From: Escherichia coli
Lineage (GTDB): Bacteria > Pseudomonadota > Gammaproteobacteria > Enterobacterales > Enterobacteriaceae
NCBI RefSeq assembly: GCF_003334765.1
Contig: NZ_QOWT01000004.1
Length of the DNA stretch: 64,000 nucleotides
Direction: 5' to 3' (one strand)
This document shows, one piece after another, positions 5,890 to 6,315 of the stretch (its first letter is position 1; the number at the start of each line of letters is the position of its first letter). Below the pieces are notes generated by a model. The model had not been told where the DNA came from and did no database searches. It saw only the letters and a list, made by a program, of their open reading frames with translations. Position numbers and translations under genes: made by a program.

Positions 5890-5912
5890 TCTCTCCATGT
5901 GTTAAATATTGA

Positions 5913-5943
5913 AACGGGCGTATAACACGCCCGTTGTTTTATT
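5913..5943 (+). terminator. rho-independent terminator of icd
   Basis: Hairpin AACGGGCGT-ataac-ACGCCCGTT (5913-5935) followed by GTTTTATTT, 24 bp after the icd stop. Confidence 0.65.
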
Positions 5944-5991
5944 TATGTGGATATTATTAATAGCATATCGAGCATATTTATATGAAGCCCA

Positions 5992-6315
5992 TTACTTGAG
6001 CCCATATGGGCATATTTTTATAATGCAACTATTATGTAAACATTTATTTGTTATTTTGCTTTCTCCTGGAGGACACTCTTGACTGCTTTTGAGTAAACTC
6101 CATAAATCCTTGTTGAATGGTGCGATGTGATAAATAGTAATAGGATATTCTTTATCCTTAAGGATAATACCAGACTTAACCGGTGTAAATATACTGCCAG
6201 GAGGGAGAAATATAGTAGATTGATACCAGATGATCATTTTCATATTACCCCATATGGCTGAAAAAGATATACCACATGTAGGTTGAATTACCGTGTCAAT
6301 TACTATCCACTTCAT
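5992..6315 (-). CDS. iraM: anti-adaptor protein IraM (RssB inhibitor)
   Basis: 107-aa ORF in very AT-rich DNA; sequence ([13 protein letters not shown]...) recognised from memory as IraM/YcgW; position immediately before ycgX matches K-12 order. Confidence 0.7.

Follow-up and report, generated by a model that had tools for sequence, protein, structure and literature searches.

An apparently intact, unoccupied attachment site of the e14/phage 21 family inside icd of an Escherichia coli lineage close to K-12

In E. coli K-12 MG1655, the prophage e14 is integrated at the 3' end of icd, and iraM follows it. In the stretch of E. coli DNA analysed here (64,000 nucleotides, referred to as the window), icd and iraM are neighbors. 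This raises the question of whether the locus is an empty e14 attachment site, where that site lies, and whether the strain was cured of e14 or was naive to it. We put the probability at about 90% that the locus is an intact, unoccupied attB of the e14/phage 21 lambdoid family, in an E. coli lineage that is a very close relative of K-12 without belonging to it. The icd features of the window are:

4639-5889, plus strand: icd, NADP-dependent isocitrate dehydrogenase, complete (ATG ORF and NCBIfam NF005425)
5725-5735, plus strand: attB crossover core for e14, 11 bp, ATGCTGCGCCA (attB/attL/attR alignment)
5725-5889, plus strand: native (icdC-type) icd tail, 165 nt, replaced by the prophage copy upon integration

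The window was compared with MG1655 and with an e14-cured K-12 strain, DH10B. In the MG1655 record, e14 occupies 1196209-1211412 (15,204 bp). Its left end is within icd, its right end abuts the icdC pseudogene (1211413-1211577), and iraM lies 103 bp past icdC, in line with the order icd, e14, iraM that an earlier note on this DNA had given for MG1655. The window was collinear with MG1655 1190485-1196208 and then continued straight into 1211413-1269687, so that exactly the annotated e14 was absent. When MG1655 1194000-1216000 was aligned with the whole window by BLASTN, two blocks abutting at 5724/5725 were obtained and e14 was skipped. A BLASTN search with the whole MG1655 icd-e14-ycgZ region found no match to e14 DNA in the 64-kb window. 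TBLASTN searches with Lit, IntE, XisE, PinE, McrA, YmfD, YmfE, and YmfK found no e14 homologue in the same 64 kb. Their sole match was that of YmfK to UmuD at 25230-25496, which was expected from S24-peptidase similarity; it was ruled out as an e14 remnant because the two proteins share S24-peptidase homology. Between icd and ycgX, ORF analysis, BLASTN, and TBLASTN detected no integrase, excisionase, or other element genes, and only iraM, ymgK, and ymgL were present. The earlier note had described the locus as e14-free, with no integrase, invertase, or phage genes from icd to ycgX, and these searches bore it out. The window lacks the e14-borne genes mcrA, lit, and pinE and the ymfM/sfiC-type division inhibitor, an absence with consequences for T4 exclusion and for the restriction of methylated DNA. 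No observation contradicted the empty-site reading; an e14-like element could conceivably exist outside these 64 kb, elsewhere in the genome or as an excised circle.

The icd ORF encodes 416 aa, ends with TAA at 5887-5889, and matched NF005425 with 857.9 bits (cut-off 490). Nucleotides 1-1086 matched MG1655 icd without a single difference. Over its final 165 nt, the gene was identical to MG1655 icdC at 165/165 positions and to the e14-supplied tail of MG1655 icd at 153/165, with 12 nt and 2 aa differing. Icd of the window therefore carries E398 and E410, not the D398 and D410 of MG1655. The whole gene was 100% identical to icd of DH10B and of BS74R-D, a wild human rectal isolate (4.86 Mb). The same 12 SNPs and an 11-bp repeat have been reported for e14 excision (PMC4759930), and an icd/icdC chimera has been discussed as an e14 excision product (bioRxiv 10.64898/2026.06.14.732165). 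The expectation that icd would have its native end instead of the e14-supplied one was thus correct.

How the e14 attachment site in icd works was reportedly described by Hill, Gray, and Brody in 1989 and by Brody and Hill in 1988. The attP carries, together with a terminator, a phage-borne version of the final ~165 nt of icd. The tyrosine integrase of the element recombines attP with the 11-bp chromosomal core. An integrated element leaves icd functional, its reading frame running on into the tail and terminator brought by the phage; the native tail, now the icdC pseudogene, comes to lie at the opposite end of the prophage. Excision is the exact reversal of integration and leaves no scar. In the window, the core at 5725-5735 leads into the native tail and native terminator and then into iraM, with neither element nor scar. 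The strain either never had e14 or lost an element by precise excision. Because excision leaves no scar and icd of DH10B is identical, the local sequence cannot tell the cured from the naive state.

The position of the core was read directly from the alignments. ATGCTGCGCCA was the sole block identical in the window, MG1655 attL, and MG1655 attR before the first tail SNP (5736); therefore, the e14 crossover falls within the 11 bp at 5725-5735. The left boundary of e14 in MG1655 maps to window position 5725, and the core is located inside icd, 165 nt upstream of the stop. The earlier note had placed the site at 5890-6315. An empty site is indeed present, but it lies upstream of that interval, inside the gene.

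Phage sequences converged on the same point. In an alignment of attB, attL, attR, and three phage attP sites, attP homology started at window 5725-5731. The icd tail was matched by 28 Escherichia phage records, ~26 of them from window 5725-5731 onward. The tail-carrying lambdoid phages include phage 21, 4A7, 1H12, ev017, and ev207. In the three phage records examined (21, 1H12, and 4A7), int and xis were located just past the icd tail. In O157:H7 FRIK2533, icd is immediately followed by the int and xis of a lambdoid prophage. The predicted attB of the window may be competent for integration. Since the terminators of phage 21 and 4A7 have a stem-loop identical to that of the window, earlier exchanges with phage copies may also have affected the native tail. 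As a separate observation, the FRIK2533 genome gave a single megablast match to the icd-iraM-ycgX query, and on the right side of the prophage, the icdC-iraM-ycgX flank appears to be absent or divergent.

The frequency of the empty site was determined in 5426 complete E. coli genomes. Contiguous icd-iraM-ycgX was found in 2976 of them (~55%), counted when a 2901-nt query over icd-iraM-ycgX was at least 80% covered in one piece. The 165-nt icd tail occurred 7361 times in the 5426 genomes, and the median genome had one copy; therefore, at most about a third of the genomes have a duplicated tail. The e14 intE at no less than 99% identity was found in 283 records, and those listed were K-12 or K-12-like (O16:H48) strains. 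The empty icd site is the norm in E. coli, and K-12 is the exception. Because empty is the common state of the species, the empty site of the window is unremarkable. As the majority state it has little weight as a discovery: it is an ordinary, long-known polymorphism, and the site, the tail replacement, and the e14-free state have been in the literature since 1988-1989. A side observation was made in the e14-free K-12 strain AG100 (NZ_LN832404.1), in which the 165-nt tail at 1238749-1238997 consisted of two joined pieces over 249 bp, an excess of ~83 bp. It could be a partial tandem duplication or an assembly artefact.

The genes 3' of icd are:

5992-6315, minus strand: iraM, RssB anti-adaptor, 107 aa (ORF and NF007393; annotated as iraM in matching genomes)
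6573-6617, minus strand: ymgK mini-ORF, 14 aa (coordinates transferred from the MG1655/RefSeq annotation)
6853-6963, minus strand: ymgL mini-ORF, 36 aa (coordinates transferred from annotation)
7016-7420, minus strand: ycgX, DUF1398 protein, paralogue of lambdoid prophage genes of the ybcV family (ORF; phrog_413, E = 1.5e-41)

The next gene past ycgX is bluR. IraM matched NF007393 with 172.6 bits (cut-off 121). In an earlier study, K-12 iraM was said to be "found on the e14 prophage", and CFT073 was described as having no iraM (PMC4045071). Contrary to the former statement, iraM lies outside e14, because the MG1655 annotation puts it beyond icdC and because it is present in the e14-free window and in DH10B; all e14-free genomes that were examined agree with this placement. 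The window is a clear example of iraM not being an e14 gene. A literature search for work treating iraM together with icd and e14 yielded unrelated papers only. Homologues of IraM with 65% amino acid identity were found in 46 phage records, mostly of Stx2 phages (phrog_4407), and in the phage record examined the IraM relative was located just downstream of stx2B. At the DNA level, the 5' end of ycgX and its upstream region (window 7016-7498) resembled phage lambda (47322-47527) and the ybcV region of an O157 prophage, with ~72% identity. When an Stx2 phage, the O157 prophage, and a phage collection were searched by BLASTN with sensitive settings, no phage homology was detected beyond iraM and ycgX; it was confined to these two genes and showed no synteny. 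We also observed a homopolymer length polymorphism ~80 nt upstream of the iraM start. The poly-C tract at 6393-6401 has 9 C in the window and BS74R-D and 8 C in MG1655 and DH10B. An Rfam scan of 4000-9000 gave just one sub-threshold chance match, to an archaeal snoRNA family.

Between icd and ymgL, a terminator and two repeat copies were identified:

5913-5945, plus strand: icd intrinsic terminator with a 9-bp GC-rich stem, a 5-nt loop, and a T-run, the hairpin at 5913-5935 (terminator scan)
5896-5940, plus strand: direct-repeat copy 1 (icd terminator region), left boundary of the iraM module (repeat search, gapped alignment)
6759-6805, plus strand: direct-repeat copy 2, a degenerate second icd terminator, right boundary of the iraM module (repeat search, gapped alignment)

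The iraM stop is 102 nt past the icd stop with the hairpin in between, in agreement with the earlier description of icd, its terminator, and then iraM within about 100 bp. The plus-strand terminator RNA had a folding energy of -20.7 kcal/mol (z = -4.9 vs shuffles). Since the minus strand also folds (z = -4.4 vs shuffles), the predicted terminator could serve the convergent iraM as well. The two repeat copies are 45-47 nt long and 84% identical. Copy 1 forms a strong hairpin, and that of copy 2 was no better than shuffles. From copy to copy, the module measures 865 bp and holds iraM and ymgK. The DNA between the terminator copies has 30% GC vs 48% for the window, and GC drops from ~0.50 to 0.27-0.36 across 5900-7300. 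In strain GPEC172, icd has a single terminator and no iraM behind it; the terminator runs directly into the sequence that flanks copy 2 on its right side in the window. This single-terminator, iraM-less junction was present in 1037 of the 5426 complete E. coli genomes (~19%), often behind an icdC fragment. An icdC-like remnant upstream of copy 2 was considered and rejected; the local alignment covered only 45-47 nt, and neither remains of icd coding sequence nor anything matching the e14 tail was found. For research on the evolution of RpoS control, the repeat-bracketed iraM module may be of interest.

A contiguous icd-iraM junction might also be an assembly artefact. If e14 or another prophage were present and the assembler had merged the two ~165-nt icd-tail repeats into one, losing the element, the product would be exactly icd joined to an icdC-type tail. 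However, the same contiguous structure is found in the 2976 complete genomes from many laboratories, a 165-nt repeat at 93% identity is trivial for modern assemblers, and the closest relatives of the window (BS74R-D and others) also have no insert at icd. We give this explanation hardly any credence. The strain could otherwise descend from laboratory K-12 and have lost e14 when an SOS response induced its site-specific excision, as in DH10B, MC4100, HMS174, and RV308. Excision of e14 is frequent in laboratory evolution (PMC4759930; bioRxiv 10.64898/2026.06.14.732165), the icd gene is that of DH10B, the flanks are 99.97% identical to MG1655, and several e14-free K-12 strains cover a 25-kb query at a rounded 100.0% identity. 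The backbone argues otherwise. Over 58 kb, 14 substitutions and 3 indels separated the window from MG1655, far above the spread among K-12 derivatives. Six differences between the window and DH10B were found in 25 kb, and DH10B had the MG1655 allele at all six; BS74R-D shared five of the six with the window and differed from it at one. In the 25-kb search, wild isolates scored above every K-12 strain. An e14-cured K-12 derivative was rejected on these backbone SNPs, and laboratory curing of K-12 is very improbable here. Of the alternatives in the earlier note, cured or naive, the e14-free state stands, and curing of a K-12 derivative is unlikely in view of the SNPs common to the window and BS74R-D. 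On this sequence comparison, the window probably comes from a natural lineage close to K-12.

A different history would make the site empty now but formerly occupied. In this account, the AT-rich iraM-ymgK-ymgL-ycgX block is what erosion has left of one or more earlier lambdoid prophages at icd, and the duplicate terminator is an old junction scar. For iraM, this would mean an origin as a phage accessory gene that was later domesticated, and the icd locus would not be naive. The fall in GC across the block, the IraM homologues in mostly Stx2 phages, and the similarity of ycgX to phrog_413, lambda, and the O157 ybcV region are consistent with such an origin, as is a module that is bracketed by terminator copies and is missing, with a single terminator left, from about a fifth of the genomes. 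Known icd prophages do bring a second tail and terminator. Yet no icd-tail remnant precedes copy 2, the phage DNA homology is restricted to two genes without synteny, ycgX lies outside the repeat-bracketed module, and no integrase or structural-gene fragment is present. A repeat-mediated deletion in an iraM-positive ancestor would yield the same polymorphism. We regard a fossil prophage as plausible but less likely than not, and favor an intact, unoccupied attB in a near relative of K-12.

Two further observations concern differences from MG1655 outside the icd locus. Twelve scattered substitutions were located at 10047-57505, outside the LDR repeats. At 11 of the 12, MG1655 has G/C and the window has A/T, and four are G-to-T. 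The one-sided spectrum suggests that nearly all changes fell on the branch of the window. The end of the window (63398-64000) is the ldrA/rdlA long direct repeat region, for which the ldrB and ldrC copies of MG1655 were also matches (97-98%). Within rdlA, differences from MG1655 form a small cluster (63634-63675) that possibly resulted from exchange between repeat copies.

The locus resembles that of the e14-free K-12 strains DH10B and MC4100. They have the same gene, the same 11-bp core, a restored icd, and the same order of terminator, iraM, ymgK, ymgL, ycgX, and bluR. The difference is the non-K-12 backbone of the window, and its empty state is probably not due to laboratory curing. In phages 21, 4A7, 1H12, ev017, and ev207, the icd tail and terminator of attP align with the window from 5725-5731 to ~5942 at 90-96% identity. 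Such phages are absent from the window, and only the bacterial partner site is present. The site is also similar to intragenic att sites, such as those in tRNA and tmRNA genes, where the element duplicates the 3' end of its target, the gene stays functional, and excision restores the original. Unlike these genes, icd is protein-coding, so that e14 integration swaps two residues (E398D and E410D).
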